Below are positions 28,517-51,189 of a stretch of 64,000 nucleotides of DNA, in pieces. The notes under the pieces were generated by a model. The model was not told the origin of the DNA. It was given only the letters and a program-made list of their open reading frames with translations, and made no database searches. The first letter of the stretch is position 1; every line of letters starts with the position of its first letter. The stretch covers positions 9,000 through 72,999 of the IMG/VR virus record IMGVR_UViG_3300001531_000060; one strand, 5' to 3'. Source of the DNA: a virus. Lineage: Duplodnaviria > Caudoviricetes. Both the position numbers and the translations under genes were made by a program.

Positions 28517-28598
28517 ATGTAGCTAGGTTCGCTACCGAAAAGGATGCAACTCACATCCCTGCTACATATTAAATTTTGAGTAATTACAGGAGTGTAAT
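28517..28598 (+). ncRNA. Endonuclease-leader structured RNA, copy 1
   Basis: P1 ATGTAGC/GCTACAT; P2 GGT-TCGCT-ACC; GAAAA; P3 GGATG-CAACTCA-CATCC; loop pairs with TGAGT; SD hairpin ATTACA-GGAG-TGTAAT. Confidence 0.75.
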
Positions 28599-29549
28599 AT
28601 GGAAGAATTAATTAAGTATTTAAATGGTCATAAGAATTATAGAGTTTCAACTATAGAGAAAGATTACTTAACTCAAGAAGTTAAAGATACGTTAACTAAG
28701 TATAGTTTAACTTTAAAAGAGTTGTGTTATAGAATAATACATAATATAGCTTTAGATAAAGTGTTTACTTGTAAATATTGCGGTAAACGTGTTGGGTTGA
28801 GAAAAGGTAAAAATAAATATAAAGAGTTTTGTGACCTTAAATGTTCTGGTGATTATATAAATAATTTAAAAGAAGTTAAAGAAAAAAAGCAACAAACTTT
28901 GATAGAAAAGTATGGCGTAAATAACCCTACTAAATTAAAAGAGTTTAAAATTAAGATAAAAAATACTTGTTTAAATAAATATGGTGTAGATCATTATTCT
29001 AAAACCCAGAAGTGGAAAGATAGATATAAACAAACTTGTAATAAGCGCTATGGTACAGATTATTATTTACAGTCTCAAGAACGTAAGAATAGAAATGATG
29101 AAATACAAGAGAAGGCTTATAATACAAAGAAAAGCAATAATACATGTAATACATCAAAACAAGAAGAAGCAGTATATAAATTGCTTTTAACTAAATTTCA
29201 ATCAGATGATATTGTAAGATATTATAAATCTAAGCTATACCCTTTTAACTGTGATTTTTATATTAAGAGTTTGGATTTATATATTGAGTATAATGGTAAT
29301 TGGACTCATGGCAAGGAACCTTTTGACAAGAATAATTTAAAACATTTAAAACTATTGGAATATTGGAAGATTAAATCTAAAGAAACAAATTTTAAAAAGA
29401 AAACAAAGAACTATTATAGAAGTGCTATTTATACTTGGACAGTAAGAGATGTTAAGAAGTTAGAAACTTTCAAAAAGAATAAGCTTAATTATAAAATATT
29501 TTGGAATATTGAAGAAGTGAAAATTTGGATTAAAGAACAGGAAGTATGA
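28599..29549 (+). mobile_element. Free-standing PD-(D/E)XK homing-type endonuclease
   Basis: CKYCGK, KYGV[DN] repeats, CDFYIKSLDLYIEYNGNWTHG; inserted between the TerS candidate and TerL. Confidence 0.8.
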
Positions 29550-29550
29550 T

Positions 29551-32424
29551 ATGACAGATAGAAGTTCCGCATCAATTAGACAACAGTTGTGTGAATCTGC
29601 ACTTGGTGATATAGATAAAATTTTTAAAACAGATAATAAAGTATGGAATGAAGATCCAATTTCGTTCAGGGACTTCATAATTTCGAAAGATCACATGAAT
29701 TTTGTTCCGTTATCAGAAAGACAGGAAGCTCCGTTTGATTTCTTGTTTGGCAATGATTCAAAAAAGATATTTGATAATGGAAATACTACAGCAGTATTAT
29801 GTTGGGGAAAAGGATGTGTTTCAGCAGAAACAGTTTTAGAAGATGCTTTGACTCATGAAAAGTATACTGTTGGTGATCTTTATAAGAATCAAAAAAGTAT
29901 TTTTGTTAATTGCTATGATGAGAATACTAAAAGGTCTACTATAGAGGTTGCTTCAGTTCCATGGATTTCTGGTAATGGCGAAATTTATAAAGTTGAAACT
30001 GAGAGTGGCAAAACTATAAATGTTTATAAATTTCATAAGTTTTTAACTAGAAATGGTTGGAAAAGATTATCTGAATTGAGTGTAGGTGACGAGATATTAG
30101 ATGATAATATTGATATAGAAACATCTAATATTATAAGTAATGTAATTAATGAGTTTAAAGAAACGCACAAAACATATACAGAAGTTGAAGTAAAGACCTA
30201 TTTACTTGAAAGATTTTCTTGGAAAAAGAAATCAAAAGAAGAGAAACTTAGAAATAAACTAATATATTATAAAAGTTTATATGGTATAATGGGTGAAGAT
30301 TGGAGAAGCAAAAAATTTGGTTCACAGAAAGAAAAGCATCCTTTGTGGGGTACATATCAATCTGAAGAATTAAAGAAAAGAAATAGTGAATCAAATAAGA
30401 TTTCTATTAGGAAATTGTATGCAAGTGAACGTGGTGAAGAAGTAAAAAGAAAAATATCTTTAAAAACAAAAGGTGAGTTAAATCCTATGTACGGTAAGCC
30501 AGCACCTTTTGGTAGTGGGAAATGTGATTATTTTAAATTCAAAAATAATAAAGGTGAAGAATTTTATATACAAGGTACATGGGAATTAAAGTTTGCAGAA
30601 TTTTTAAATGATAAGAACATTAATTGGGAAAAGAATTTTGATAGATTTAATTATATTGCAAAAGATGGAAGTGAGAGAACTTATTGTCCAGATTTTAAAT
30701 TGTTTTTTGAACATAAAAGTATTTATGTAGAGATAAAAGGTTTAGAAGACGAGAATGTTAATATAAAGTTACAGGCTGTAAGAGATGCTGGAAAAGAAAT
30801 TATAATAATTCGCCAGGATACATTTAGACAATACTATAAGAATTATGAAACACCTGAATTGAAATTTGAAAAAATAAAAGCAATTACTTATTTACGTAAC
30901 GATAATTATTATGATTTAGAAGTTGCTAAGTATCACAACTATTTAGCTCATGGGTTATATAATCATAATTCAGGTAAAGATACAATAACATCTTTATTGA
31001 TGTGCTATGTTGTCTATGTACTACTTTGTTTAAGGTCTCCACAGAAGTTTCTTAATTTACCTGAAGGTGAAGCTATAGACTTGCTTAATGTGGCAGTTAA
31101 TGCACAACAAGCCTCAGGTGTTTTCTTTGAGAAGTTTAAACAAAGATTAATACGTTGGCAATGGTTAAGAGATAAATATCCGGTTAAGTTTTCCGGTTCA
31201 TTTCTTGGACAGGCAAGAATAGATGATATATTAAATACAGTTACAATAACGCAAAACGCAGCTATATTTCCAAATAATATAAGAGCTATTTCAGGACATT
31301 CAGGAGCTAATTCACAGGAAGGTAAGAATATATTATTTTTTGTATGTGATGAGATTGCAGGCTTTGATGAAACTCCAGCTACAAATAAAGGTATAACAAT
31401 TTTTAACATGATGAAATCTTCTGCGATTTCTCGTTTTGGAAACAGATATAAAGGTGTAGCATTAAGCTTTTCCAGATATGAAGGTGATGCAATACTTAGA
31501 TTATATGATCAAGGACAATCTGAGTTACATTGGTTTTGTGATAAAGCCTGTACATGGGAAGTAAAACCTGCACATTGTTTTAAAGATTATCCTCAGAAGT
31601 ATTTTGAGTTTCAAGGACACAAGATTCCGTTGGAATATCAATCTGAGTTTAAAGCAGATCCGGAAAATGCTAAAACAAAATATATGTGTTTACCATCTTC
31701 TATATCAAGTGTGTTTATTGAGAAGCCTGAAAAGATTAGAGCTTGTATAGATCCAAATAGATTACCATTAGTTGATACACAAGATTATGAAGAAGATGGT
31801 TATGTTAAGAAATTAATTACCAATTATAATATAAGTAGAACAGATATAGATTATACAATAACAATCGATTTAGGATTAAGGAGTGACTCTGCAGCGTTAT
31901 CAATATTTCATACAGAGTCCACAGCTACTGGATTAAAAGCAATACAAGATTTAATGATATCTTGGGTGCCTAATCCAGAAAAGAAGTTAGAAGTTTCAAT
32001 GCATAATGTGAAACAGTTTTTGGTTGATATAAGTAAGCATATAAATATAAATAGAGTTTATTTTGACCAATGGAACAGTGCTTTACTTATTGAACAGTTA
32101 AATGAGTTGCATATACCTTCTGAAGAATATAGGCTCAATTTTGCAGATTATAAACATGCAAAAGAAATGATGTATGAAGGTAGAGTATCTTTGCAGCCTA
32201 GTGAGAGACTTCAGGAAGAGTTTAGAAGACTGATATTAACTAGATCAAAACGTGTAGATCACCCAGCAGATTTCCATAATGATAACTGTGATACAGTTGT
32301 AGGTGCAATAAAGATTTTACTTACAAAGAAAGCATTGAATAGCAATATAAATATGGAAGGTGGAATTTATATACAGAATAACTTAAGTTCAATAGGTGGA
32401 ACAATTATTGGACAACAGGAGTAA
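29551..32424 (+). CDS. terL: Terminase large subunit containing an intein
   Basis: Walker A GKG|SGKD split by the intein; Walker B FFVCDE; nuclease TIDLG..SD; FDQWNS; HNDNCD. Confidence 0.9.
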   Translation: MTDRSSASIRQQLCESALGDIDKIFKTDNKVWNEDPISFRDFIISKDHMNFVPLSERQEAPFDFLFGNDSKKIFDNGNTTAVLCWGKGCVSAETVLEDALTHEKYTVGDLYKNQKSIFVNCYDENTKRSTIEVASVPWISGNGEIYKVETESGKTINVYKFHKFLTRNGWKRLSELSVGDEILDDNIDIETSNIISNVINEFKETHKTYTEVEVKTYLLERFSWKKKSKEEKLRNKLIYYKSLYGIMGEDWRSKKFGSQKEKHPLWGTYQSEELKKRNSESNKISIRKLYASERGEEVKRKISLKTKGELNPMYGKPAPFGSGKCDYFKFKNNKGEEFYIQGTWELKFAEFLNDKNINWEKNFDRFNYIAKDGSERTYCPDFKLFFEHKSIYVEIKGLEDENVNIKLQAVRDAGKEIIIIRQDTFRQYYKNYETPELKFEKIKAITYLRNDNYYDLEVAKYHNYLAHGLYNHNSGKDTITSLLMCYVVYVLLCLRSPQKFLNLPEGEAIDLLNVAVNAQQASGVFFEKFKQRLIRWQWLRDKYPVKFSGSFLGQARIDDILNTVTITQNAAIFPNNIRAISGHSGANSQEGKNILFFVCDEIAGFDETPATNKGITIFNMMKSSAISRFGNRYKGVALSFSRYEGDAILRLYDQGQSELHWFCDKACTWEVKPAHCFKDYPQKYFEFQGHKIPLEYQSEFKADPENAKTKYMCLPSSISSVFIEKPEKIRACIDPNRLPLVDTQDYEEDGYVKKLITNYNISRTDIDYTITIDLGLRSDSAALSIFHTESTATGLKAIQDLMISWVPNPEKKLEVSMHNVKQFLVDISKHININRVYFDQWNSALLIEQLNELHIPSEEYRLNFADYKHAKEMMYEGRVSLQPSERLQEEFRRLILTRSKRVDHPADFHNDNCDTVVGAIKILLTKKALNSNINMEGGIYIQNNLSSIGGTIIGQQE
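29815..30969 (+). mobile_element. Intein (385 aa) with NUMOD3-like repeats and a PD-(D/E)XK nuclease
   Basis: Starts CVSAET; block B HKFLT..GW; ends YDLEV..HNYLAHGLYNHN followed by Ser+1; internal GELNPMYGK and YCPDF..YVEIKG. Confidence 0.92.
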
Positions 32425-32426
32425 AA

Positions 32427-32675
32427 ATGTCTAGATGGTTAATTGCAAATGATATGAAAGGTGTAGATCAAGATCCAAATACATTTCAAAACGAAGTTAA
32501 AGTAGTTGAGCAAAAACAAAATAGTTTGTCTGAACATCCGAATGAAGGTAAAGATGTTGAAGTTAAAATAAGTTTTGATGCGAAAGAAAATAATCCGGAG
32601 GGCAAAGATATCAGTAATGTTCCTATAGGAATATCCCCAAACGGACAGCAACAAACAAAAGATGCTATTGCGTAG
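32427..32675 (+). CDS. MSRWL-leader small protein 1
   Basis: MSRWLIA... Confidence 0.65.
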   Translation: MSRWLIANDMKGVDQDPNTFQNEVKVVEQKQNSLSEHPNEGKDVEVKISFDAKENNPEGKDISNVPIGISPNGQQQTKDAIA

Positions 32676-32696
32676 CCTTGACATTTTTATCATAAT
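32676..32696 (+). promoter_or_regulatory. Putative late promoter
   Basis: CCTTGACA-TTTTTAT-CATAAT. Confidence 0.7.
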
Positions 32697-32731
32697 ATCT
32701 AGATTTTTAAATATTTATTAGGAGTTTTCAT

Positions 32732-34267
32732 ATGGGTTTATTTGATAATTTTAAAAAGATATTAGCTATAGATGAATCTGATTTTGTATCTGAAGATGAA
32801 TTAGGATCTAATGAACAGTCAGATTTTGATGACGAAGAAGATAATATAGAGTTATTTGAAAAAAATGTAATAAGTAAGATTTCAAATATGAAACAGTTAT
32901 TATCTGCTGGAAAAGTTGATTTAGATGCTTTGAATTCTGAGTTGAAAGAGATTGAGAATTATATTGATTCTGCAGATTATATAAGTTCAAATCTAAAATT
33001 AGATTTTAAAGATCAAATAAATATAACAATTAATAGTTTAAATAAAGAAACAGAACTTCAGTTACCAGATTATATTTTAGATATTGGTCGCAAATATTAT
33101 TGTTTGTCAGACTATATTGAAAATAATTTAGCTAATTTAGAAACTTCAAAATATAATTTAGAAAGTTTACAGAGTGCATTAAAAAGTCTTACAAATGAAA
33201 TGCAAAGAATTTTATATTCATATTCTTTCCAATCAGATATTGAACTTTCTAAAAATGCAATAAACGAATTTGAAAGTATATTCGATAATATAATAGCAAG
33301 TATGCTAGATAAAGATTCTGCTATTGGGATTAATAACAAATTAAATGAGATTACAAATCAGGATGTAGAAGAATTTTTAAAAGTTCGTTTTAGTAATTTG
33401 CTTTCAAATATCGGTTCAGATAGTTGGTCATTTAAATTAAAAACTTTATCTAAGCATTTAACCAAACTTGAAATGCTTTGTTCTTCTGTTATAGAACTTT
33501 TAGATAAAGAAGATATGAAAGCACCTTTAAGAAATAAATTATATGATATCTTATGTTCTGAACAATATATAATTACTAATATTTGGCGTAATAGAAATGA
33601 CAGAGATTCACTATTTAGAACATTAGCTTATAATTTTGAAGGTGCATTTGTAGCGTCTGATTACACACAGAATTCTGAAGTAAGACAACTTTTAAAAGAG
33701 TTAACTACTAAATTAACTGATATAACGAAATCGGCTAATATTAGAGATATAAACTATAATAAGATTATTAGCGAAATAAATTTAGCTGGTATTAAAACCG
33801 CTATAAAAGAATTAAATTATTATTTTGTTAATAATGCTGAGAAGTTTAAAACATTAGTAAATAAATTAAACAATATAGGAAATGTTAACGGTAAGTTTGT
33901 TGCATCAAAACGTGAATACAATGAGATTAATCAGATCTGGAATTCAATTTTCAATAAATTATATAAAGTTGTAGAACCTATCTATAGTTTGAAAAATAAA
34001 GTGAAAGACAATGTATCTGATATAAATATAACATTAGGTTCAGGACAATCTTTAACAGCGCCCGAATTAGTAGATTTTTTATGTGAATTTAGAGATTTTG
34101 TATTTAAAGAATCAATGAGTCCAGATTTAAGTGTTAATATAGAATCTCAAACAGATGCTGTACAACCGATGGAAGTAAGTGAAAAAGTTTTGAATAATTT
34201 TAAATTAACTTATTCACAGTTAGTTAATTTTGAGAGAAAAATAAAAACGTATAATAATATTAATTAG
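32732..34267 (+). CDS. Hypothetical helical virion protein (511 aa)
   Basis: AGGAG RBS; follows a late motif; N-terminus MGLFDNFKKILA. Confidence 0.55.
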   Translation: MGLFDNFKKILAIDESDFVSEDELGSNEQSDFDDEEDNIELFEKNVISKISNMKQLLSAGKVDLDALNSELKEIENYIDSADYISSNLKLDFKDQINITINSLNKETELQLPDYILDIGRKYYCLSDYIENNLANLETSKYNLESLQSALKSLTNEMQRILYSYSFQSDIELSKNAINEFESIFDNIIASMLDKDSAIGINNKLNEITNQDVEEFLKVRFSNLLSNIGSDSWSFKLKTLSKHLTKLEMLCSSVIELLDKEDMKAPLRNKLYDILCSEQYIITNIWRNRNDRDSLFRTLAYNFEGAFVASDYTQNSEVRQLLKELTTKLTDITKSANIRDINYNKIISEINLAGIKTAIKELNYYFVNNAEKFKTLVNKLNNIGNVNGKFVASKREYNEINQIWNSIFNKLYKVVEPIYSLKNKVKDNVSDINITLGSGQSLTAPELVDFLCEFRDFVFKESMSPDLSVNIESQTDAVQPMEVSEKVLNNFKLTYSQLVNFERKIKTYNNIN

Positions 34268-34281
34268 ATAAGGAGTAGATT

Positions 34282-34629
34282 ATGGAAGATATAAAAAAGG
34301 AAGCAAGATTTAATTTATTTGCAGAGTTCGATGATGTTGGTGATGACAATACTTGGGAAGTTGTTGAAGATGAGAACGGTAATAAAGTTCTCGGAAGAAT
34401 GGCATCAGCAAAAGATGTGACAAATAAAGAAGCAATTAAGGCCGGTGGAGCCTGGGCATATAAAGAAGGAGATAATGTTTATATTGATACAGGTGATACG
34501 ATGCTTCATAAAGCAACTATTTTAGACAGAAGAGCTAACTTAAAATACGGTATTGTTTGTGAAGGAAGTTCTTTAGTTCATGAAATAGAAGAAGCAGATA
34601 TTATAGATGTAGATGAAAATTTATTTTAA
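34282..34629 (+). CDS. Hypothetical head-region protein
   Basis: AAGGAG RBS. Confidence 0.55.
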   Translation: MEDIKKEARFNLFAEFDDVGDDNTWEVVEDENGNKVLGRMASAKDVTNKEAIKAGGAWAYKEGDNVYIDTGDTMLHKATILDRRANLKYGIVCEGSSLVHEIEEADIIDVDENLF

Positions 34630-34642
34630 TAGGAGTGAGAAT

Positions 34643-35911
34643 ATGTCAGATTTAAATAAAAAAGAAGCTGGTATACAAGAAATTACACAGATGCTCTTTA
34701 ATGTGAATTTTGCAGGAACAAATTCAAAGGAAGAGTTTACAGAATTACAAAATAACATGATTAAGATGTTGAGTCAACATCAGTATTCTTACTCTGATAT
34801 TGAAAATTATTTTATTGGTTGGGGCTATCAAGTTCCTATGATAAAAGAAATTTATAAACATCTTACAGGATTAGATCCGGAAAGAGTTAATTCAACAGAT
34901 TATTTATTGAATATGCCTGGATGTATTCCTGGATTTAATTATGGTTGGGGAGAAGGTAAAGGTAGTAAATATAAATATGTATTTATTATAGGATATAAAC
35001 TCGGATTCGGTGTGTTTGGTCAAATCGATGATTTGTCTAGAGAACTTATACAGTATACATTGGATCTTGAAGAAGCATTAAATGTTTTAAATAAAAATGC
35101 AAAGGATATAAAGACTTGCAAATCTATTATATCTGTTCCTGAAAAAGATATTAATAAGAGTTTGGAAGTACCTTATCTTTGTACAGATGCTCCTATAACA
35201 CAGAAGGTTTTATTCAAAGGTAGAACCGCTTCTCTTGCAAAGAGTATTGATTCTTATCAAATGCAACCTCATGAAGTAAGAGCAATGTTAAGAGTTGCTT
35301 ATGATCAAAATGAAATTACAGCACAAGAACACAAAGACTTGTACGATTATTATTTAAAGAGATATGCAGAGGAAGATGAAGCTTCTGATATAACAAAAGA
35401 ACTCGAGAAAGAAGATATTAAAACAAATCAAACAGATAAAGATTTACAAAAAGAAGTAGTTAATGAAGATAAAGCTGCGTTTGATTTGGATAAAATTGCT
35501 TTTTACATAAAAGAAATCAATAAGTATTTTGAAGATAATCTGTCAGAATTATTGTCAAAAGCTTTGATAGAAGTTAAAGAAGTAAAGTATGTTAATAAAA
35601 ATGTAGATAATTCAATCGAAAAAACTCCGGAAGTTCCGGGACAAAATCCAATTCAATATTTTAATAAAGCTGCAAAACTTTCTGTAGTTTTAGGTGTTAC
35701 TTGGAATGATAAAGCAAATTTAGGACAACAGTTTGTTCTAGCGATGTTCGCTATAGATGATAAAGGCAATGTTGAAACAGACGGTAACTTCAAAGGTGTT
35801 GATGAAGAAATTTATCCTTTGAATGCATCTGGTCTTGAAAATTATTTTTCTAAACTTGAAGAGTTAGATAAATCTGGAAATGTAAAAGATGATGTAAAGG
35901 AAGAAGAATAA
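34643..35911 (+). CDS. Hypothetical head-region protein
   Basis: AGGAG RBS precedes ATG 34643, in frame with the track ORF at 34613. Confidence 0.55.
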   Translation: MSDLNKKEAGIQEITQMLFNVNFAGTNSKEEFTELQNNMIKMLSQHQYSYSDIENYFIGWGYQVPMIKEIYKHLTGLDPERVNSTDYLLNMPGCIPGFNYGWGEGKGSKYKYVFIIGYKLGFGVFGQIDDLSRELIQYTLDLEEALNVLNKNAKDIKTCKSIISVPEKDINKSLEVPYLCTDAPITQKVLFKGRTASLAKSIDSYQMQPHEVRAMLRVAYDQNEITAQEHKDLYDYYLKRYAEEDEASDITKELEKEDIKTNQTDKDLQKEVVNEDKAAFDLDKIAFYIKEINKYFEDNLSELLSKALIEVKEVKYVNKNVDNSIEKTPEVPGQNPIQYFNKAAKLSVVLGVTWNDKANLGQQFVLAMFAIDDKGNVETDGNFKGVDEEIYPLNASGLENYFSKLEELDKSGNVKDDVKEEE

Positions 35912-36105
35912 TGTCTAGATGGTTGATTACATCAGAAATCAATAAATCAAATGAGATAGATAACAACTCTAATAAAAGTTTAGAAGATAATCAAGTTATG
36001 GAAGCGTTACCAACAGGTGAGTTAGGGAATGGTACATTTGAAGGTAATGAAAATAAATGGAAAGAAGAACAAGAAAAGAATAAGGTACAAATAAATGCAA
36101 AATGA
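35911..36105 (+). CDS. MSRWL-leader small protein 2
   Basis: MSRWLITS... Confidence 0.6.
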   Translation: MSRWLITSEINKSNEIDNNSNKSLEDNQVMEALPTGELGNGTFEGNENKWKEEQEKNKVQINAK

Positions 36106-36286
36106 TTTACTATATATAATAGAAGATATAGAAAAGCGTGTATATTACTTATCTCAAGAATTAAATAAAAATAATATTAATGCAAATATAGATATAAGTA
36201 ATATACAATATGCTTTAATAAATGGTATAAAGCCAAAGGTAAATGAATACACTGAAAAAATGAAAAAATTAGAAAATGAAAATTAA
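36095..36286 (+). CDS. Hypothetical protein
   Basis: ORF track; overlaps the upstream gene. Confidence 0.45.
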   Translation: MQNDLLYIIEDIEKRVYYLSQELNKNNINANIDISNIQYALINGIKPKVNEYTEKMKKLENEN

Positions 36287-36303
36287 ATTAAGGAAGATTA
36301 CAT

Positions 36304-38040: not shown

Positions 38041-38042
38041 AG

Positions 38043-38264
38043 ATGAGTAGATGGTTACAGGCAGAATATACAGGTAAAGTGTTATTTGATTTAATAGATA
38101 AAAAAATTACTAGAGATGATCCTAATTTTATGGAAGCGTTGAAAGAAGCGATAGAATATAAAGGGCTTGAACAAGCTCACACACTTATTGATGATGGAAT
38201 AGCTACACAAGAAGAAGTGAGTCAAGCTATTACGGAATTGAATAAAAGTAACATGGAGGAATAA
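38043..38264 (+). CDS. MSRWL-leader small protein 3
   Basis: MSRWLQA... Confidence 0.65.
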   Translation: MSRWLQAEYTGKVLFDLIDKKITRDDPNFMEALKEAIEYKGLEQAHTLIDDGIATQEEVSQAITELNKSNMEE

Positions 38265-38265
38265 T

Positions 38266-38397
38266 ATGTTTAAAAGATCTGGAGTAGTTACTCCAATGAA
38301 GGTTTTGAAAAAGATTACATCTGAAGATATGCCAAGTAAGAAGATGAAGAAAGTTGCTGAAGATGAGCAACAAACAAAAACTACTAAGGAAAAATAA
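38266..38397 (+). CDS. Small basic protein (43 aa)
   Basis: Hand-translated MFKRSGVVTPMKVLKKITS...KKVAEDEQQTKTTKEK after GGAGG; not in the ORF track. Confidence 0.5.
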   Translation: MFKRSGVVTPMKVLKKITSEDMPSKKMKKVAEDEQQTKTTKEK

Positions 38398-38398
38398 T

Positions 38399-38683
38399 AT
38401 GTCTAGATGGTTAGTGCAAGCTTTTTACAATGAACCAAATACTATTGAGATTGATAAACCTAACTCAAGTGATGAGAAAGCTAATAAAAAATTGCAATAT
38501 ATTTTTGATATGTTAGAAAATATACAAGCATCAGATAAGTATTATACATACGAAAAAACTGAGTTAGATGATAAATATATATTAACAATTAAACGTGAAC
38601 GCACACCAAAATCCGGTGAAGAAACAATGCCTATGGTGAAAGATATATTAAATAGATATAAGATCAATTATAGGGAGATATAA
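38399..38683 (+). CDS. MSRWL-leader small protein 4
   Basis: Internal ATG of track ORF 38354 gives MSRWLVQA... Confidence 0.6.
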   Translation: MSRWLVQAFYNEPNTIEIDKPNSSDEKANKKLQYIFDMLENIQASDKYYTYEKTELDDKYILTIKRERTPKSGEETMPMVKDILNRYKINYREI

Positions 38684-38684
38684 A

Positions 38685-39449
38685 ATGTTTAAAAGATTGT
38701 GTATGGCAGAACCAATAGAAGTCTATGCTTCAGCAAATGATATGCTTGAAGGTTGGTATGGATTTAATAGACAAGCTTCAAAAAAGATAGTAAAAGCTTT
38801 TGAGTTTGATCCGGATAACTATTTGTATTATAGAAACAGAGCTATTACAGCGGATGAAAGAAATGCAAATGGAGATATATTTCCTCACGATGAAATAAAG
38901 AAAGCATATACTACTTTTATAGGAAAAGGTATATTTTATAATCATAATTCTGATGATCCTAATAACTCTATGGGAATTATATTGGATGCTAATTTTGTTG
39001 AACCAGCACAAAAACATGCTTATGTAGAATTACTTTGTGCTATTGATAAACAATTAGCAGAACAAAAATATCCTGGATTGTTACATAGAGTTGAATCAGG
39101 ATTGGTTTCAGGTACTTCGATGGGTACATTTGCAGGAGCTGCACAGTGCTGTATTTGTGGAAACTATACAACTACATTAGAAGGATTATGTGAACATATG
39201 AATCCGGATGATATGCATTATTGTAAAGGTAAACTTATAAATGCTTCTACAAATGAGTATGGTGCAGAAATTAATTACGGATTATGTTTCTGTGAAGATA
39301 GTATTGTTAATGAACCAGCAGATCCAACTGCACATATTTTCCAAGTTTATGCAAGTACAAAAGATAAATTAGATGTCAATAATCCAAATAAAGAAATAAT
39401 TGCAAGTTTAATAAATACTTTACAAACAATGTTAAAGGTATTGAAGTAA
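38685..39449 (+). CDS. Prohead (maturation) protease
   Basis: N.NGD.F, FYNHN (His), SGTSMG (Ser), CCICGN..CEH; between portal and scaffold. Confidence 0.7.
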   Translation: MFKRLCMAEPIEVYASANDMLEGWYGFNRQASKKIVKAFEFDPDNYLYYRNRAITADERNANGDIFPHDEIKKAYTTFIGKGIFYNHNSDDPNNSMGIILDANFVEPAQKHAYVELLCAIDKQLAEQKYPGLLHRVESGLVSGTSMGTFAGAAQCCICGNYTTTLEGLCEHMNPDDMHYCKGKLINASTNEYGAEINYGLCFCEDSIVNEPADPTAHIFQVYASTKDKLDVNNPNKEIIASLINTLQTMLKVLK

Positions 39450-39461
39450 AATAAGAAAATA

Positions 39462-39561
39462 ATCATTATCAGGTAGCATTAACCTAGCTAGTTAATGAGA
39501 TAATAGTATACCTTGAAATACTAAGCTGATAATGATATAATATCTTTCAAGGAGATAATTA
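39462..39561 (+). ncRNA. Endonuclease-leader structured RNA, copy 3 (divergent)
   Basis: P1 ATCATTATCAG/CTGATAATGAT; P2 CATTAAC-CTAGCTA-GTTAATG; AGATAA; P3 TAGTAT-ACCTTGAA-ATACTA; loop CCTTGAA pairs with TTCAAGG overlapping the SD. Confidence 0.7.
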
Positions 39562-41217
39562 ATGCAAAGAGATGATTATACAAAAGAAATATTAATAAAT
39601 ATTATAAAAGATTTGAAACAGAGAAATTTAGAATTTGATTTACAAGCTAAAGTTTTTGGGTTTTCTAAAAAGAATAAGTTAATTTATAAGCAAGTTAATA
39701 GTCAATATCCAAATGCATTTATTAATGTTTCTGAATTGCATAAAGCATTAAATTGTGATATGGATGAATTATTTTGTAAGAATTGTGGTAAACGCGTAAC
39801 GTTTATTAGTGAGAAACGATCTAGACAATTTTGTTCAGTATCATGCAAGTCAAAATATATGTTAAAGACAGGTAAAGTTGTTAATCCATCTTTACGTTCA
39901 GAATGTGTAGCTAAGAGAAATAGAACATTTATAGATAAATTTGGTTGCAATCCTTCACAATTATTAGAAATTAAAAATAAAAAAGAAGCAACATGTTTTA
40001 AACATTTTGGTGTGAAGTTTCCAGGTCAAGTTGAAAGTGGGAAATTAAAGTCTAAACAAACTTGTCTAGAAAAATATGGTGTAGAATATTACAATCAGTC
40101 AGAAATTGCTAAGGAAAAACAAAGACAATTTAATTTACTGAAGTTTGGTGTTGAAAATATGAATCAAGTGCACATTAAGAACTATAATAATTTGCATGAG
40201 GATTATGTTAGAAGCAATTTCATAAAAGATAATAAATTTTTAATACAAGAATTTCAAGCTTACTTTAATCTACAATATAAGGCAGCGTCACAATATAAGA
40301 AACAGTTTAATATACAAGAACAAAATAAATTAGATGTACAAAAAACACAGCAAGAGCTATACAGGTTTATAAAATCTTTAAATATAAGTAAAGTTAACTA
40401 TAATGATAGAAGTGTTTTAAATGGTAAAGAATTGGATATTTACATACCAGATAAGAAATTAGCTATAGAGTTTGATGGATTAATGTTTCATTCATTTGGT
40501 AAGTCAAAGCATACAATATTTAATAACTTTATTGAAGAAGATCGGAATATACATTTATCTAAAACTAATGTTTGTCAAGAAAAAGGAATACAATTACTCC
40601 ATATATTTGAAAACGAATGGTTAACTAAAAAAGACATATGGAAGTCTGTGATTAAAAATAAACTTGGTTTGATTGACAAAAAAATATATGCAAGAAAATG
40701 TGAAATAAAGAAAGTTCAGAATTCAGAAAAGGAGACCTTCTTAAATACAAATCATTTACAAGGTAGCTGTCAATCAAGTATAGATATAGGTTTGTATTAC
40801 AATAATGAATTAGTATCGTTAATGACTTTCGGTAAGTCAAGATTCAATAAAAAATATAAATATGAATTACTTAGATTTTGTAATAAATTAGATATAATTG
40901 TAGTTGGTGGAGCTTCCAAGTTATTAAGCTACTTCAGAAAACATTATAACGGTAATATTATAAGTTACGCAAATAGACGTTGGAGTAACGGTGACTTATA
41001 CCAAAAATTAGGATTTAGTTTTGTAGAAGTGTCGGAGCCAAATTACTTCTATTTTAATCTTAAAGATAGAGTACTTATAAGTCGTATACAGTTTCAAAAA
41101 CATAAATTACATAAAAAATTAAGTACATTTAATTCTAGCCTTTCAGAAACACAAAATATGTACAATAATGGTTATCGTAAGATTTATGATTGTGGTAATT
41201 ATACATTTAGTTTGTAG
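39562..41217 (+). mobile_element. Free-standing Hef-like/PD-(D/E)XK endonuclease with KYG repeats and a C-terminal acetyltransferase-like extension
   Basis: FCKNCG..FCSVSC; K[FY]GV repeats; ELDIYIPDKKLAIEFDGLMFH; ARKC..NHLQG..YELLRFC..GGASKLL..YDCG. Confidence 0.75.
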
Positions 41218-41266
41218 TCTTAAAAATTTCATAAAATATTAAAATACTATATAAAAATTGTAGAAA

Positions 41267-41288
41267 CCCTTGACAAAAGTATCATATT
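41267..41288 (+). promoter_or_regulatory. Putative late promoter
   Basis: CCCTTGACA-AAAGTAT-CATATT. Confidence 0.7.
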
Positions 41289-41324
41289 ACACTTGTATAT
41301 ATAAGTATTTTTTTGGAGGATACT

Positions 41325-42026
41325 ATGGCTGATCAATTTAACAGATTAGCACAACATTATTCAAATTATTGGAAAGATAAAGGAGAGAATGCTCCTGCTA
41401 TCAATTTTGATACAAAACAAATAGAAAGAACAGCTGAGCAAGCTTTTAGATCAGCAGCTGAATCTGATACATCCGATAAAGATTCTGCTCCATCTGTAGC
41501 TGATAAAGGCGCAAGTAAACCAAAAGATAAGGGTTTGAATCTTGCCGGATTGTTTTCAAATATAGATGAGATGATTGAAAAAGCAGCTGAGAATAAGGTT
41601 AAAAGAATTTTGGATAGAATAATAGATGATAAGTTACGTTCTGAATATAGTAACGATTTATCTTTATTTGAAAAATCAATGGCAAATAAAGTACAAGAAA
41701 AAGTTAAAAGTATGTCTCCAAAATTTCTTGAAGGTTTAAAAACAGTTGCTCCTGATGTAGGAAAAGGTACAGGAAGTAAAACACCTACTTCATTTACAGA
41801 AGGTGTATTAGATGAAGTTGATGAAGAAATAGTTGATAAGAAAGCTTCTGTAGAAGTATTTCCAGGGATTTATGTAAAGGCTTCTAAAGAAGATGAAACA
41901 GTTGGTGAAGTATTTGTGAAAGACAATGACTCATTACAAAAAATGAGTTATGTTGTTAATTTACCAAAAACAAATTCTAAAAAAGAATATATAGAAGAAT
42001 TACAAAATACATTTGAATCATTATAA
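41325..42026 (+). CDS. Hypothetical head protein
   Basis: GGAGG RBS precedes ATG 41325; RSAA and KKAS motifs. Confidence 0.55.
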   Translation: MADQFNRLAQHYSNYWKDKGENAPAINFDTKQIERTAEQAFRSAAESDTSDKDSAPSVADKGASKPKDKGLNLAGLFSNIDEMIEKAAENKVKRILDRIIDDKLRSEYSNDLSLFEKSMANKVQEKVKSMSPKFLEGLKTVAPDVGKGTGSKTPTSFTEGVLDEVDEEIVDKKASVEVFPGIYVKASKEDETVGEVFVKDNDSLQKMSYVVNLPKTNSKKEYIEELQNTFESL

Positions 42027-42142
42027 AATAATAGAAAATCTAGAACAAAGAAGAAAAAAGAACAGAGAAAAATAGAAAGGTAATAGAAGTTATTTTATAT
42101 GGTCTAAATTATATTTAAATTTAATTAAATAGGAGATACTAA

Positions 42143-43342
42143 ATGTTTGAATTATTTTATAAAGCAGGTAAATCACTTGCTGACTCTTTCTTTATTGGAA
42201 GAGAAGGTAAAGATGACGTATTAGTTATAAGTGCTTCTGAAGTTTTGCCGTTAGAAATGCAAAAGAAAATCGAAGCAGCTGAAGAAGAATTAAATAAGGT
42301 TGAAGTAGAAAATACAGTTGAAGGAACACCTGCAACTGAAGATAAAGCTATTGAAAATTTAAATGAAGCAGAAGTTAAATTAGATAGCGTAAAAGAAGAT
42401 ATTCAAGAAGCAAAAGGTCATGAAGAAATGGAAAAAGCTGAAGAAGTTGTTGAAGCTTCTAAAGTTGATGTAGATGCTATATATAAAAAAGCAGGTGTAC
42501 CTACACCAGAATTTATAGCAAAACAGATTGCTTCTGTATGTAAAGATTTTAAAGGTTTCGAACAATTCTGTAAAGAAGCTAAAGCAAACAAAGCTGAAAT
42601 GGTTAAAAAAGCTTCATTAAAGAAAGAAGCTGCTAAAGAAGATGAGACAGTATTTACATTTAATAAAGAAGAAGATGGTAAAAATAAACCAGCAAAAGCA
42701 ACTGAAGGTGCGATAGTTTCTGTAAATGAAAAAGAAGCTAAAGCAGATGCAGGTAAGGGTGTTAAAGACGCTAATGCAGTTTCTTCACCGGTTAAATCAT
42801 ATTTTGGTAGATTGCCAGGAAATGGTGGTGGAGATGCAGTAGAATCTATAAATAGACAATCTTCATTGAAAGAACAATTCCTTAAACTTACAGCAGAATT
42901 AGATGAAATGAAAAAGAAAGATGAAGAAAAAACTGAAAAGTTAGGAAAGATGGAAGATGAAAACAAGAACTTGAAAGAAGAAATTTCCAATGGAAACAAA
43001 GACAAAGACATCAATGCAATTATCTCTGAAATCAAGAAAGTAGTTAAGGTACAAAAAGAAAATGTTTTCAAAGATAAACTTGTAAAAGCAGATGAAAAAG
43101 CTTTGAAAGTTGTATTAGATGTTGTAAAAGAAATTGCAAAACTTTCTGATGGAGAAAAAGCTGATAAAGACGCAGCAAGTCTTTTCGGTGGAGAAGCAAA
43201 GAAAGATAACAAAAAAGAAGAAGTTGTAGATTTCACAGAAGTAAAAGCATCAAGAAGAATGCCTGGACAAAACATACCACAAGTATTTTCACAATATAAC
43301 GGTGGAGATGTTTCAGGATTAAATTCATTATTCGAAGACTAA
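42143..43342 (+). CDS. Capsid scaffolding protein
   Basis: E/K/A-rich coiled coil upstream of the decoration and capsid genes. Confidence 0.7.
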   Translation: MFELFYKAGKSLADSFFIGREGKDDVLVISASEVLPLEMQKKIEAAEEELNKVEVENTVEGTPATEDKAIENLNEAEVKLDSVKEDIQEAKGHEEMEKAEEVVEASKVDVDAIYKKAGVPTPEFIAKQIASVCKDFKGFEQFCKEAKANKAEMVKKASLKKEAAKEDETVFTFNKEEDGKNKPAKATEGAIVSVNEKEAKADAGKGVKDANAVSSPVKSYFGRLPGNGGGDAVESINRQSSLKEQFLKLTAELDEMKKKDEEKTEKLGKMEDENKNLKEEISNGNKDKDINAIISEIKKVVKVQKENVFKDKLVKADEKALKVVLDVVKEIAKLSDGEKADKDAASLFGGEAKKDNKKEEVVDFTEVKASRRMPGQNIPQVFSQYNGGDVSGLNSLFED

Positions 43343-43377
43343 TCTAGTCTTAAAAATTTAAAAGGAGAATATAAATC

Positions 43378-43881
43378 ATGGGTATAATGTATTCAGTTCA
43401 AGAAGATAATTTAACAACCGACTTTGGTATATCATCTTTGTTCCCTACAACAATTGAAGATAATACTAAAGTTTTCAAAGGAACAGCAGTAATAGCAGGT
43501 CAATGCTTGGAAAACACAACTGAAGGTTTGGTATTGGCAAATGCTTCTTCTACAGTTTATGGTTTGGCAAAAGAATCAGTAAACGTTGAAGCAAATGTAA
43601 ACGAAGTTTCAGATAACGGATGGGGCATTTTCGGTTCAAAGAAAATAACAGCTTGTATGTTTGGTGTATACAGCGTTAAAAACTTTGAATATACGAAAGG
43701 TGATGGCGATGTTGTAGAATTTACAGCTATAGATACAAATGCTATAAATGCAAATACTACATTAGGTGTAGCTTTGGCTTCTAATGCTAGTGGAAACATT
43801 ACAGTAGCATCTGGTGATGGCTTCGGTACATTGCTTGCTGTATCTGCAGACGGAAAAGAAATTCAAGTATTTATAAAGTAA
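43378..43881 (+). CDS. Head decoration/cement protein
   Basis: Small beta-rich G/A/T protein directly upstream of the capsid gene. Confidence 0.6.
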   Translation: MGIMYSVQEDNLTTDFGISSLFPTTIEDNTKVFKGTAVIAGQCLENTTEGLVLANASSTVYGLAKESVNVEANVNEVSDNGWGIFGSKKITACMFGVYSVKNFEYTKGDGDVVEFTAIDTNAINANTTLGVALASNASGNITVASGDGFGTLLAVSADGKEIQVFIK

Positions 43882-43915
43882 TTATTTAAAAAATTTTAAA
43901 AGGAGATAATAAATC

Positions 43916-44896
43916 ATGGGTACAATAGATAATATATCATTATGGGGCGATACAGCATTAGCAAGAAAAGCTTCAGTTAATGCATCTGCTACACCTGTAT
44001 CAATGGAAGCAAAAGAACAAAAATTTAACATGTACTGGAATGCACCAGGCGGATATCAAAGAATAGCTTTCGCATTGTCTGGTCCGTTGAAAACAAGATT
44101 GGATTACGTTGGTGTTGGAAGAAAACTTTTGATGGTTGATACCATACCTACCGGAGATATTCCTGTATACGATATGGATATGCCAGAATTTGGTGCTGTT
44201 AAAATAGCTGCTAGAGGTCAAGCTCCAGTATTTGAACAAGGCATCAAGAGAATTGGAATTCCTACATTTGAAGTAACAGTAAATGAAGTTATTAAGAAAC
44301 AAGAATTAGCTGTAAGAAAATATCCTGTATTCGACAGAGCAAAAGAAAGAGCTGCAATAGCTATGGCTATAGCTGAAGATGACATGATATTTGATTTGGT
44401 TAAATCAGCAGCAGTTAAGAATCCTAACCCAGCTACAATGGCTACATATGGTTCTGCTACAACATCAATAACAAAAGCAGATTTTGCTGAAATGTTCGGT
44501 GATATAACTGAAAGACAGTTGATTGCTAAAACATATTTGTTAGGTGCAAAAACATATGCAGATATATTGAAATGGAATTCTCAAGATTTGGATCCAGTAT
44601 CTTTGAACATCCAATTGGAAACAGGAAATTTTGGTTCTATATTTGGTGTTAGAGCTATTGCTTCTACAAGACTTGATAAAAACTATGGTTATGATACAAA
44701 CGGAAAGAATCAACAACCAGTATTTACATTGACAACTCCTGATAAACTCGGAAGATTGCCAGAAAGAAAAGCTGTTGAAGTTTCCATATTTGATAACATT
44801 CCTAAACTTCAGTATGATATAATTCCTTACGAAATAATCGGTATGGGTATTTATAACTGTGCTGGTGTATCTGGAAGAGTTAGAAGTTTGGCTTAA
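43916..44896 (+). CDS. Major capsid protein (HK97 fold)
   Basis: PLKTRLDYVGVGRKLLMVD.IP.G.IPVYD, PTFEV, A.A.AED..IF; strong RBS; followed by a terminator. Confidence 0.85.
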   Translation: MGTIDNISLWGDTALARKASVNASATPVSMEAKEQKFNMYWNAPGGYQRIAFALSGPLKTRLDYVGVGRKLLMVDTIPTGDIPVYDMDMPEFGAVKIAARGQAPVFEQGIKRIGIPTFEVTVNEVIKKQELAVRKYPVFDRAKERAAIAMAIAEDDMIFDLVKSAAVKNPNPATMATYGSATTSITKADFAEMFGDITERQLIAKTYLLGAKTYADILKWNSQDLDPVSLNIQLETGNFGSIFGVRAIASTRLDKNYGYDTNGKNQQPVFTLTTPDKLGRLPERKAVEVSIFDNIPKLQYDIIPYEIIGMGIYNCAGVSGRVRSLA

Positions 44897-44910
44897 TCAG
44901 TTTAGTATTA

Positions 44911-44944
44911 AAAAGCTACCGAGGAATCCTCGGTAGCTTTTTTT
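44911..44944 (+). terminator. Rho-independent terminator
   Basis: AAAAGCTACCGAGG-AAT-CCTCGGTAGCTTTT followed by a T-tract. Confidence 0.92.
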
Positions 44945-44950
44945 ATATAC

Positions 44951-44972
44951 CCCTTGACATTTATATCATATT
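44951..44972 (+). promoter_or_regulatory. Putative late promoter
   Basis: CCCTTGACA-TTTATAT-CATATT, immediately after the capsid terminator. Confidence 0.72.
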
Positions 44973-45022
44973 ATAGATAGATTGTAGATGGGCATAAATT
45001 ATTTTTATTTGAGGAATGAACT

Positions 45023-45430
45023 ATGAATAATGAAAAAGACGTTAAAGATACAGGAATAGTATCACAAGAATCAATTAATAGAGCAATTGAAGACACAACG
45101 CAGTCCGAATATTATCAACAAAATAGAATTCCTTTACTAACAGGTGAATATAGAAAGGAAGCATTTCTTAAATTAAAAGGATTATTTTTAAAAGAGTTAT
45201 ATAAAGCAGTAGATGAAGAAGAAAAAGCTTGTAGAAAGGCTGATTTAGAGCCACAAATGAAAGGTGATAAGCTTAAATATATAGAAGACATGGTTGAGAC
45301 ATTTGACAATATGTTTCAACTAGAAGCACTAGCACAGTATTTATATCAAGAAAATATTATACCGACATTAGACGAAGTTAATACAAGAGCAAATAAACTA
45401 AACGAAAATCTCGGTAAACTTGAACTTTAA
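45023..45430 (+). CDS. Hypothetical protein
   Basis: GAGG RBS. Confidence 0.55.
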   Translation: MNNEKDVKDTGIVSQESINRAIEDTTQSEYYQQNRIPLLTGEYRKEAFLKLKGLFLKELYKAVDEEEKACRKADLEPQMKGDKLKYIEDMVETFDNMFQLEALAQYLYQENIIPTLDEVNTRANKLNENLGKLEL

Positions 45431-45432
45431 TT

Positions 45433-45780
45433 TTGGAGTATATCATGCTTAAGAAAACTGTAAAATTTTTAAAAGATGTTAAGACAATTATTTGGGCAAT
45501 CGTATTAAGTGGAACAGTTTTAATATTTATTTATGGAACGTATCTTAAAGTTGCAGAAACGGTACCGACAAAAGTATATGCAATGGAACAAGATTTAAAT
45601 GACGTTAAGTATCGTGTAACTGATCTTGAAACTGAAAAACTTATTATAAATAAAGACTTAAGCGTGATGCAAACAGAATTAAAAGAGATAAAGGCACAAA
45701 TTGCAGAGAATCAAAAAGAAACAAGAGCAGCTTTAAAAGAGATAAATAGAGATGTAAAAGACATCCTTAAAACCATATAA
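45433..45780 (+). CDS. Holin/spanin-like membrane protein
   Basis: One TM segment (IIWAIVLSGTVLIFIYG) plus coiled coil, upstream of the endolysin. Confidence 0.5.
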   Translation: MEYIMLKKTVKFLKDVKTIIWAIVLSGTVLIFIYGTYLKVAETVPTKVYAMEQDLNDVKYRVTDLETEKLIINKDLSVMQTELKEIKAQIAENQKETRAALKEINRDVKDILKTI

Positions 45781-45793
45781 TTATTGTTGATAA

Positions 45794-45829
45794 ATGACAA
45801 CACAGCTATCACCTAATTTCACATTGTAG
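45794..45829 (+). pseudogene. Orphaned original 5' end of the endolysin (MTTQLSPNFTL*)
   Basis: Aligns to MIYLAPSFTL at 46573. Confidence 0.7.
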
Positions 45830-45837
45830 TTTAGATA

Positions 45838-45925
45838 ATAGTGGCTAGGGTAGCTCCCGAAAAAACAGCAACTCACTGTTCTGCCACTATAAATTATATG
45901 AGTAATATTTTACAGGAGTGTAAAA
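45838..45925 (+). ncRNA. Endonuclease-leader structured RNA, copy 2
   Basis: P1 ATAGTGGC/GCCACTAT; P2 GGG-TAGCT-CCC; GAAAA; P3 AACAG-CAACTCA-CTGTT; TGAGT; SD hairpin TTTTACA-GGAG-TGTAAAA. Confidence 0.78.
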
Positions 45926-46576
45926 ATGACTAAATTAAATTTAGAAGTAGGACAAAAGTTTGGAAGGTGGACAGTTTTAGAAATTTCAAAGAAAATAAAA
46001 GGTCATGGCAATATTTTAGTAAGATGTAAATGTGATTGTGGTACAATAAAAGAAATTAGTCACTACACATTATTAAACGGTAAATCTGTTAGTTGCGGTT
46101 GTTTACGAAAAGAATTGTTAAGTAATAGAGAAAACGCTCACCATAAAACAAATACAAAGCTTTATCAAATTCATGCAGCAATGAAAGCTCGTTGTTTTAG
46201 TAAAAATCATAAAAATTATAAACAATATGGTGGTCGTGGGATAACAGTTTGTGATGAATGGAAAAATGACTTCGTGGCTTTCTATAATTGGGCAATGAGC
46301 AATGGTTATAAGGAAGGTCTTACAATAGACAGAATAGATGTGAATGGTAATTACGAGCCAAATAATTGTAGATGGGTTACTAGAAAAGAGCAGGCAAATA
46401 ATACTAGAAAAAATTGTTTTATTGAATATAATAATGAAAGACATACTATTGCTGAATGGTGTGATATTTTAGGTATAACATACAGCAAACTATTTAGCAG
46501 ACTACGTAAAGGTCTTCCTCTAGATAAATGTTTTTACCCTGGTAAAATATCAAATAATGGAATAGATTTACTATGA
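45926..46576 (+). mobile_element. Free-standing HNH endonuclease
   Basis: GQKFGRWTV, CKCDCG, SCGC, YGGRGITVC, TIDRIDVNGNYEPNNCRW. Confidence 0.9.
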
Positions 46577-47037
46577 TATATTTAGCACCTTCGTTCACTC
46601 TCGATGAGCTATTAACTACTTCACATAAGGATTTACTTCCTAAACAAAATGAGGAAGTGAAGCCTTATGTGAATAACTTATATATACTTGCCAATTATAT
46701 ACTTCAACCAATCCGTAATTACTATAAAGTACCTATAACAGTTACAAGTGGATTCAGAGGAAAAGCATTAAATGAAAGAGTTGGTGGAAATAAAACCAGT
46801 CAACATTGTTTAGGTGAAGCAGTAGACTTTATAGTTAAAGGCAAGACAGTTGATGAAGTATTTGAAGATATTAGAACAGGTAAGATTGATATTTGTTATA
46901 AACAGCTGATTAAGGAAAAAATATCTGGAAAGTTTTGGATTCATATAGGGATGGTCAAGATACCCTTTAAACCTAAAGATAAGTATTTGCAGAAGTTAAC
47001 TACAACTGATGGTAAAAAATATACAGAAGTAAAATAG
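46573..47037 (+). CDS. Peptidase M15A-family endolysin
   Basis: LQPIR, ITVTSGFR, VGG..TSQH..GEAVDF, WIHIG. Confidence 0.88.
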   Translation: MIYLAPSFTLDELLTTSHKDLLPKQNEEVKPYVNNLYILANYILQPIRNYYKVPITVTSGFRGKALNERVGGNKTSQHCLGEAVDFIVKGKTVDEVFEDIRTGKIDICYKQLIKEKISGKFWIHIGMVKIPFKPKDKYLQKLTTTDGKKYTEVK

Positions 47038-47058
47038 AATAAAGGAGAAAAATGAACA

Positions 47059-47775: not shown

Positions 47776-47791
47776 AGGAGAACAATGAAAA

Positions 47792-48223: not shown

Positions 48224-48232
48224 GAGTTTAAA

Positions 48233-48418: not shown

Positions 48419-48439
48419 TTGAAAATAAGGATTTTAACA

Positions 48440-48907: not shown

Positions 48908-48916
48908 GAGGTCGTA

Positions 48917-50122: not shown

Positions 50123-50159
50123 TTGAATTTAATCTAATATTTTAATATAATATACTGTT

Positions 50160-51188: not shown

Positions 51189-51189
51189 A

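Follow-up and report, generated by a model that had tools for sequence, protein, structure and literature searches.

The window analysed here, a stretch of 64,000 nucleotides (nt) of viral DNA (Duplodnaviria; Caudoviricetes; positions 9,000 to 72,999 of IMG/VR record IMGVR_UViG_3300001531_000060), carries three homing-endonuclease-like genes, each of which is directly preceded by an RNA leader that can be read as a three-way junction (Table 1). The phage itself is novel, has a GC content of 29% and encodes a portal protein 29% identical to that of Bacillus phage G. In all three leaders a closing stem (P1) encloses two hairpins (P2 and P3), and the loop of P3 is complementary to sequence lying between the 3' strand of P1 (P1') and the start codon. 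In leaders 1 and 2, the nucleotides ACUCA of the P3 loop can form 5 base pairs (bp) with UGAGU (site 1), and the match of the same loop to the Shine-Dalgarno region (site 2) is GAGU, of 4 bp. A small hairpin carrying the Shine-Dalgarno sequence follows; in leader 1 it starts 1 nt past site 1 and ends at the AUG, and its stem covaries in relatives. Minimum-free-energy folds of all three leaders gave the same junctions as were read by eye. The direct reading agreed exactly with the layout proposed for 28517-28598 and 45838-45925 in a preliminary description made from the sequence alone, and it confirmed that all three stems differ between copies 1 and 2 and yet stay paired.

Table 1. Coordinates of the leaders, their parts and the associated genes in the window.
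Feature	Position	Strand	Basis or remark
Leader 1, three-way junction, whole	28517-28567	+	RF02996 37.3 bits; model R1 76.6 bits
Leader 1, P1	28517-28523/28561-28567	+	read in sequence
Leader 1, P2, loop UCGCU, UA junction before	28526-28528/28534-28536	+	read in sequence
Leader 1, P3, loop CAACUCA; GAAAA before, CU after	28542-28546/28554-28558	+	read in sequence
Leader 1, site 1 (UGAGU), pseudoknot partner of P3 loop	28577-28581	+	after 9-nt linker; best duplex -4.9 kcal/mol
Leader 1, Shine-Dalgarno hairpin AUUACA-GGAG-UGUAAU	28583-28598	+	fold -3.6 kcal/mol
Homing-endonuclease-like gene 1, 316 amino acids	28599-29549	+	DUF7487, phrog_3339
Leader 3, P1, 11 bp	39462-39472/39526-39536	+	read in sequence
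Leader 3, P2, 7 bp, loop CUAGCUA	39477-39483/39491-39497	+	GUAG junction before
Leader 3, P3, 6 bp, loop ACCUUGAA	39504-39509/39518-39523	+	AGAUAA before, AG after
Leader 3, sigma-70-like promoter TTGAAA, 17 nt, TG-n-TATAAT	39513-39541	+	11/12 matches, extended -10
Leader 3, hairpin AUCU-UUCAAGG-AGAU	39542-39556	+	7-nt loop fully complementary to P3 loop, -8.4 kcal/mol
Leader 3, UUCAAGG	39546-39552	+	9 nt past P1'; overlaps Shine-Dalgarno AAGGAG (39549-39554)
Homing-endonuclease gene 3, 551 amino acids	39562-41217	+	phrog_3339 E 1e-144, DUF7487
Mobile cassette, leader 2 and HNH gene	45826-46582	+	exactly this stretch absent from L005
Leader 2, three-way junction, whole	45838-45890	+	RF02996 42.3 bits; model R1 77.6 bits
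Leader 2, P1	45838-45845/45883-45890	+	read in sequence
Leader 2, P2, loop UAGCU	45848-45850/45856-45858	+	read in sequence
Leader 2, P3, loop CAACUCA (as leader 1)	45864-45868/45876-45880	+	read in sequence
Leader 2, site 1 (UGAGU)	45899-45903	+	8-nt linker; duplex -5.0 kcal/mol
Leader 2, Shine-Dalgarno hairpin UUUUACA-GGAG-UGUAAAA, ending at AUG	45908-45925	+	fold -4.7 kcal/mol
HNH endonuclease gene, 216 amino acids	45926-46576	+	phrog_374 E 1e-76

Leaders 1 and 2 belong to the int-alpA family (Rfam RF02996). Both match the model over its full length (1-71), with scores above its curated gathering score of 35.8 bits and with E-values of 1e-6 for copy 1 and 6e-8 for copy 2, so that the earlier statement that the element belongs to no named family does not stand. 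A match to an already characterised Rfam family had been expected to remove its novelty; a match was found, but the matched family has no characterised function, and the novelty is therefore lost only in part. A gathering-threshold Rfam scan of the entire window was blank, and hits were obtained only on stretches of 160-180 nt; the blank result is an artefact of speed filters, and because hits above the cut-off were missed in this way, blank whole-window scans should not be counted as absence for short AT-rich motifs. A search of the window's own record with the RF02996 model listed one of the two copies. The int-alpA family is presumably among the candidates of Weinberg et al. 2017. It is not discussed in the main text of the 2017 survey (PMC5737381), and in the other papers found to contain the string, int-alpA is either listed among predicted small RNAs or denotes a gene order, with no function given; the literature search found no description of the combination of features reported here. 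The copies in the window do not lie between the integrase and alpA genes that gave the family its name, the genes downstream being endonucleases, but this name records only where such an RNA was first found and sets no criterion of structure. int-alpA is thus a catalogued but uncharacterised RNA, to which leaders 1 and 2 add members and not a new kind of RNA.

An exact pattern with the CAACUCA loop retrieved six more viral contigs and one rumen metagenome-assembled contig, and a looser pattern fixing only the core matched at least 119 viral contigs. A covariance model built from eight close sequences (model R1) re-found 103 instances in 100 loci among the matches listed. With filters off, this model scored 77 bits on copies 1 and 2 in the window and found nothing else above 10 bits; by strand, the scores were 77 bits on that of the gene and 9.7 on the opposite one. 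Among the eight close relatives, double-sided changes occur in 12 of 16 pairs, and the share of paired cells is 93.8%, compared with 34-54% when the partners are slid; for 99 distinct family members the corresponding values are 91.5% and 27-45%. P1 and P3 covary strongly in this larger set, and P2 was largely set by the search pattern, which makes covariation there uninformative. The count of G-U versus A-C used for strand assignment came to 47 against 51 and did not discriminate. The P2 loop is near-constant in the family, which spans phages of 42 to 73% GC, and P3 is the only loop complementary to a target. The covariation in both sets of sequences, together with the scores on the sense strand, bears out the earlier claim of a genuine covarying structured RNA, and the structured RNAs in front of these genes are more than a product of chance.

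Nine sequences, leaders 1 and 2 included, form an AT-rich subgroup in which the loop CAACUCA and the site UGAGU are common to every member. The UGAGU lies 8-12 nt past P1' in all nine and is followed in each by a hairpin with a GGAG loop, the stem of which varies but remains paired, and then by the ATG. The downstream genes of the subgroup are homing-endonuclease-like in all nine cases and are of three kinds: DUF7487, an HNH type of 210-216 amino acids, and a group assigned to NUMOD4/HNH_3 from sequence features, within which L002 has no Pfam call.

Of 102 non-redundant instances across the family, 95 have a same-strand open reading frame (ORF) that begins 21-67 nt past P1'. In nearly all instances site 1 begins 4-13 nt past P1', and the end of site 2 usually falls 4-13 nt ahead of the start codon, so that this second site overlaps the Shine-Dalgarno sequence. 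As a control, the longest Watson-Crick run of each loop was determined with its own tail and with the tails of other instances. The mean run of the loop with site 1 was 5.6 for own and 3.2 for foreign tails, and that with the 22 nt before the start codon was 5.05 for own and 3.4 for foreign ones (4.9 and 3.5 when the two regions were barred from overlapping). For 67 of 94 instances, a hairpin encloses site 2 and carries it in its loop; in 45 of 77, only 0-1 nt separate the 3' end of site 1 from the beginning of this hairpin, which ends mostly within a few nucleotides of the start codon. Because the hairpin abuts site 1, a pseudoknot helix formed there would stack directly on the Shine-Dalgarno hairpin. 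Two phages carry two leaders each, the loops of which differ and match their own tails, and such private loop-tail pairs within one phage argue for addressing in cis.

Leader 3, previously described as a divergent third copy at 39462-39561, was confirmed to have the same topology with different junctions (GUAG, AGAUAA and AG), and the pairing that had been noted between its P3 loop and UUCAAGG over the Shine-Dalgarno sequence was likewise verified by reading. It gave no Rfam match at E up to 10 and no match to model R1. A pattern made from this copy retrieved relatives from four large contigs of phages, 118-394 kb in length, and a derived model (R2), which scores leader 3 at 78.4 bits, found two more copies. 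The variant design, comprising P1, a 7-bp P2, P3, the junction AG and the loop partner, is present in the window copy and in L135, L138, L142 and L159. In an alignment of five members of the class, double-sided changes occur in 12 of 18 pairs, and the share of paired cells is 96.7%, compared with 13-51% when slid. The class has no decoy site, as site 1 may be termed, and its P3 loops CCUUGAA, CCUUAAU, CCUUGAU and CCUUCAU (CCUUNAN) are complementary, over all 7 nt, to the loop of the Shine-Dalgarno hairpin, a further example of which, besides that of the window, is UAUUUCU-AUUAAGG-AGAAAUA. The genes downstream encode DUF7487 proteins (window copy and L142), a PDDEXK_5 protein (L138), a 106-amino-acid zinc-finger protein (L135) and, in L159, a 490-amino-acid product with DUF7487-like repeats. 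Leader 3 is therefore a member of a small, uncatalogued sister class with the same wiring. Letters common to the variant and int-alpA are UA in the first junction, GA[U/A]AA in the second and, except in L159, where it is lost, UAGCU in the P2 loop. Common descent appears plausible.

The promoter-like site within leader 3 has its -35 box in the P3 loop. Transcripts from this site would begin just before the Shine-Dalgarno sequence, would lack the junction and would thereby escape repression; the site may, however, be a chance occurrence, as it is not conserved in relatives. In a 118-kb phage, a variant junction was also seen between two tRNA genes of a tRNA array (L129:3630-3730, minus strand). 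This copy has neither a P3-loop partner nor a downstream gene; it may have been left behind by a cassette since lost, or may serve a second role.

Mobility was evident from comparison with the L005 phage, which is 92-97% identical to the window over 45049-58820. As L005 is without exactly leader 2 and the HNH gene, the leader moves with its gene, and the earlier proposal of an RNA that travels with a selfish endonuclease is upheld for this cassette, which constitutes one insertion relative to L005 and has leader 2 at its 5' edge. Its place of insertion is within the 5' end of an M15 peptidase gene, which in L005 starts at the empty site. A relic ORF at 45794-45829, corresponding to the first 11 peptidase codons (MTTQLSPNFTL), ends 8 nt before P1, and the cassette supplies a recoded peptidase 5' end (MIYLAPSFTLDELL...; peptidase 46573-47037), the ATG of which overlaps the endonuclease stop codon (ATGA) at 46573-46576. 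The recoded segment probably marks, and protects, the target site of the endonuclease. Furthermore, L005 carries a leader and a DUF7487 gene (86% and 70% identical to those of cassette 1) where the window has a leaderless NUMOD1 gene, and this site is therefore regarded as a hotspot for alternative endonuclease cassettes.

All three leaders begin 6-12 nt past an upstream stop codon, and thus lie inside late operons. A strong sigma-70-like promoter directly upstream was found for 8 of 103 family instances, compared with 1 of 100 control segments; three of the eight belong to AT-rich endonuclease cassettes, with a -10 box ending 4-7 nt before P1. The notion that the leader always starts at +1 was rejected on these counts, most leaders being inside operons. 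The surroundings of leaders 2 and 3 contained no terminator-like site, and near leader 1 there was one only, on the opposite strand. Two other promoter motifs were observed in the window. Seven exact copies of CCTTGACA-N7-CATAWT occur at 7690, 26918, 32676, 41268, 44952, 51191 and 60836, six of them on the plus strand and in the structural-gene region, a number reached by none of 100 shuffles (mean 1.5); it looks like a late-promoter motif, and in L005 the sequence CTTGACA-N7-CATAAT is located about 20 nt upstream of its leader. Perfect TTGACA-17-TATAAT promoters are found at 7733, 8133, 14462 and 23221; all four precede 26.9 kb, and promoters of the host sigma-70 type thus appear to serve the early genes.

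The three endonuclease genes of the window had been taken to be of three different kinds; they represent two families, since genes 1 and 3 both match DUF7487 and phrog_3339 and are 36% identical over the DUF7487 repeats. Gene 3, earlier called Hef-like, was thus assigned to DUF7487/phrog_3339 by the family searches. A search for related loci with the 551-amino-acid protein returned only two partial relatives. Part of a DUF7487 gene (29095-29378) has 68-73% DNA identity to Prevotella Lak megaphages, at up to 7 places per genome, and these matches indicate that the DUF7487 endonuclease family is spread over very different phages. Directly after endonuclease cassette 1 lies a 957-amino-acid gene (29551-32424) with an intein splicing domain and a NUMOD3 motif inside it.

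Beyond the window, Pfam matches among 110 downstream proteins were mostly to DUF1376, HTH_36 and nuclease domains; they included the replication-type domains DUF1376 (20), HTH_36 (9), DUF927 (3), DnaT (2) and PriCT_2, DnaD_N and Dam (one each), and the nuclease-type domains HNH_3 (9), NUMOD3, DUF7487, NUMOD4 and HNH (3 each), and GIY-YIG and HNH_5 (2 each). int-alpA leaders precede replication-initiation genes about as often as they precede homing endonucleases, the latter being of at least five nuclease types, and the specificity for endonucleases that had been suggested is thus contradicted by the equally common replication proteins. An enrichment for endonucleases may still be deduced, because such genes are rare in phages generally. 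Two further endonuclease-like genes in the window have no leader. One, at 10241-11080, encodes 279 amino acids, has 68-83% DNA identity to parts of the L005 DUF7487 endonuclease and gave no Pfam match; this gene of the early region may be an endonuclease copy that has decayed. The other, the NUMOD1 gene at 50160-51188, encodes 342 amino acids with three NUMOD1 domains and a GIY-YIG-like start; no structured leader is present, and the stretch 50123-51188 includes its own promoter-like site (TTGAAT, 17 nt, TATAAT).

Taken together, the arrangement of the sequence makes it fairly probable that the element is a cis-acting 5' leader which travels with its gene and damps or gates the initiation of its translation. 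The three-way junction, with its invariant core, presents a variable P3 loop that is complementary to two alternative partners. If the loop occupied site 1, the pseudoknot would stack on the hairpin, so that the Shine-Dalgarno sequence would stay displayed but the start region would be closed; if it occupied site 2, kissing of the two loops would directly mask the Shine-Dalgarno sequence. Initiation would be damped in either state, and the cassette would then fix a low output of the nuclease or replication initiator in any operon in which it had landed. Leader 3 would have the kissing state only, and the promoter inside it could yield unrepressed transcripts. Several points weigh against such a role. 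The Shine-Dalgarno match of leaders 1 and 2 is only 4 bp and their hairpins are weak (-3.6 and -4.7 kcal/mol), and repression by these leaders may be mild. A plain hairpin would suffice to occlude a ribosome-binding site, and occlusion leaves the invariant core (UA, GAAAA, CU and the P2 loop U-GC-) unexplained, which hints at a partner or ligand. The sequence would also fit repression or activation by pairing near the Shine-Dalgarno sequence equally well, and the family sample, having been drawn with a pattern that fixed the core, is uninformative on the conservation of that core.

Because plain occlusion leaves the core unexplained, a switch responsive to a ligand or factor stays alive as a rival. 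The core would bind a small molecule or an ion, or else a factor conserved among hosts, which might be a ribosomal protein, the 30S subunit or an RNase, and binding would set the P3 loop either on decoy site 1, turning the gene on, or on the Shine-Dalgarno sequence, turning it off, in the manner of a riboswitch-like sensor of host state. The single loop with two mutually exclusive partners and the junction letters, which are the capital letters of the Rfam consensus, are in its favour, and the spread over phages of very different GC content and unrelated downstream genes means that any such partner must be universal. The downstream genes are, however, non-metabolic and suggest no ligand, no known riboswitch family was matched in Rfam scans of copies 1 and 2 or of the window, and the variant class without a decoy site indicates that toggling is not universal; a conditional switch is accordingly considered possible but rather unlikely. 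Its broadest form, in which the core is a sensor of a universal ligand or host factor and the element a widespread phage switch set by host state, is thought unlikely. It would provide timing for selfish endonucleases, replication initiators and satellite regulators, with the decoy site and the Shine-Dalgarno loop as outputs, and the variant class would be a decoy-less, always-repressing derivative. Of the term translational switch used in the preliminary description, the translational part is thus indicated by the anatomy, whereas switching by a partner or ligand is no more than this rival.

The tight spacing, the private pairing of loops with their sites and the strand-specific scores fit the remaining explanations less well. 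One of these is a role in RNA processing or stability, in which the leader, whether as a self-cleaving ribozyme, as a substrate of the RNase P type or as a stabiliser of the 5' end, would separate the cassette messenger RNA from the host operon transcript. Such a role would suit the position of all three leaders close behind an upstream stop codon, inside operons, and the three AT-rich relatives in which a -10 box just before P1 would place the fold at the 5' end of the transcript. It leaves the covariation of the loop with the Shine-Dalgarno region unexplained, and no ribozyme family was matched, so that the self-cleaving ribozyme suggested earlier is not borne out; the accompanying remark that the hammerhead CUGANGA core is absent was correct, the P1-P2 junction being only UA and no hammerhead match being obtained at E up to 10. 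This explanation is held to be improbable. Quite improbable, too, is an antisense regulator acting in trans, similar to the c4 RNA of P1/P7 or the CI RNA of P4, as would accord with the Rfam typing of int-alpA as a small RNA (sRNA) gene and with the loop and site common to both window leaders and the whole AT-rich subgroup, between which cross-talk is possible. Against it stand the tight spacing to the start codon, the private loop-site pairs among leaders within one phage, the lack of terminator-like sites at leaders 2 and 3 and the opposite strand of that at leader 1, and the absence of any C4 (RF01695) match at E up to 10. Action at the DNA level, for example as a recombination or homing signal, would be compatible with a leader at the 5' edge of inserted DNA; with model scores on the strand of the gene only (77 versus 9.7 bits), compensatory changes that keep the pairing, and a ribosome-binding site as one of the partners, it is highly improbable. 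Two other roles proposed in the preliminary description find no support: what the variable loop matches is the ribosome-binding region of its own gene and not a DNA target, contrary to a guide scaffold, and the downstream proteins are too diverse for one shared autoregulatory site. Further candidates were rejected on individual features. The loop has no match to the known insertion target of cassette 2, again as regards a guide scaffold; many site pairs have no GGA, which speaks against CsrA-type sites; a tRNA-like fold was dropped because of the missing T arm and a different junction; and self-pairing of the P2 loop is not a general feature, the UCGCU of leader 1 not being self-complementary.

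The five-part anatomy, comprising a variable loop with two alternative partners, a hairpin that displays one of them (the ribosome-binding site) in its loop, the abutment of this hairpin on the other partner, a mobile endonuclease cassette and a decoy-less class, amounts to a mutationally testable model for an orphan family. Should translational damping by a cis-acting leader prove true, a selfish or dose-sensitive gene would have in the element a portable means of setting how much it is translated at any insertion site. This would bear on how homing endonucleases avoid harming their phage, and could offer a compact insulator for engineered constructs.

Among known systems, the closest is int-alpA itself, with which leaders 1 and 2 share the three-way junction, the junction letters C-UA-G, CGAAAA and C-CU-G, and the 3' pseudoknot partner. 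They differ in preceding homing-endonuclease genes in a phage of 29% GC instead of lying between an integrase and alpA, and in having a P2 of 3 bp where the Rfam model has 4 bp. The Rfam model ends at site 1, so that the Shine-Dalgarno hairpin and the second site fall outside it, and whereas Rfam types the family as an sRNA gene, the anatomy seen here is that of a cis leader. In the repZ/repA genes of IncI and IncB plasmids (Rfam PK-repZ), the loop of a distant hairpin pairs beside the replication initiator's ribosome-binding site, and the leaders resemble them in this distant pairing next to a ribosome-binding site. In these plasmids, however, translation is activated by the pseudoknot, against which a separate antisense RNA acts, and there is neither a three-way junction nor any sequence relation. 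The c4 RNA of P1/P7 and the CI RNA of P4 are structured RNAs derived from the transcript of their own target, with a loop complementary to two sites. A loop complementary to two sites, one of them at a ribosome-binding site, is common to these RNAs and the present leaders, which differ in having one specificity loop rather than two and both targets immediately downstream in cis. Homing-endonuclease genes of phages are commonly repressed by RNA structure over the ribosome-binding site, as described for T4 I-TevI, Aeh1 mobE and T4 segB (PMC3014915), and the likeness to these extends to the kind of gene and to the placement of the Shine-Dalgarno sequence or start codon in RNA structure. In the case of I-TevI, translatable transcripts arise from a promoter located within the structure (PMC3014915), an arrangement that the promoter-like site of leader 3 resembles. 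The structures of I-TevI, mobE and segB are simple local hairpins that form no shared family, whereas in the leaders described here a conserved three-way junction supplies the loop from a distance, together with a second, decoy-like partner.

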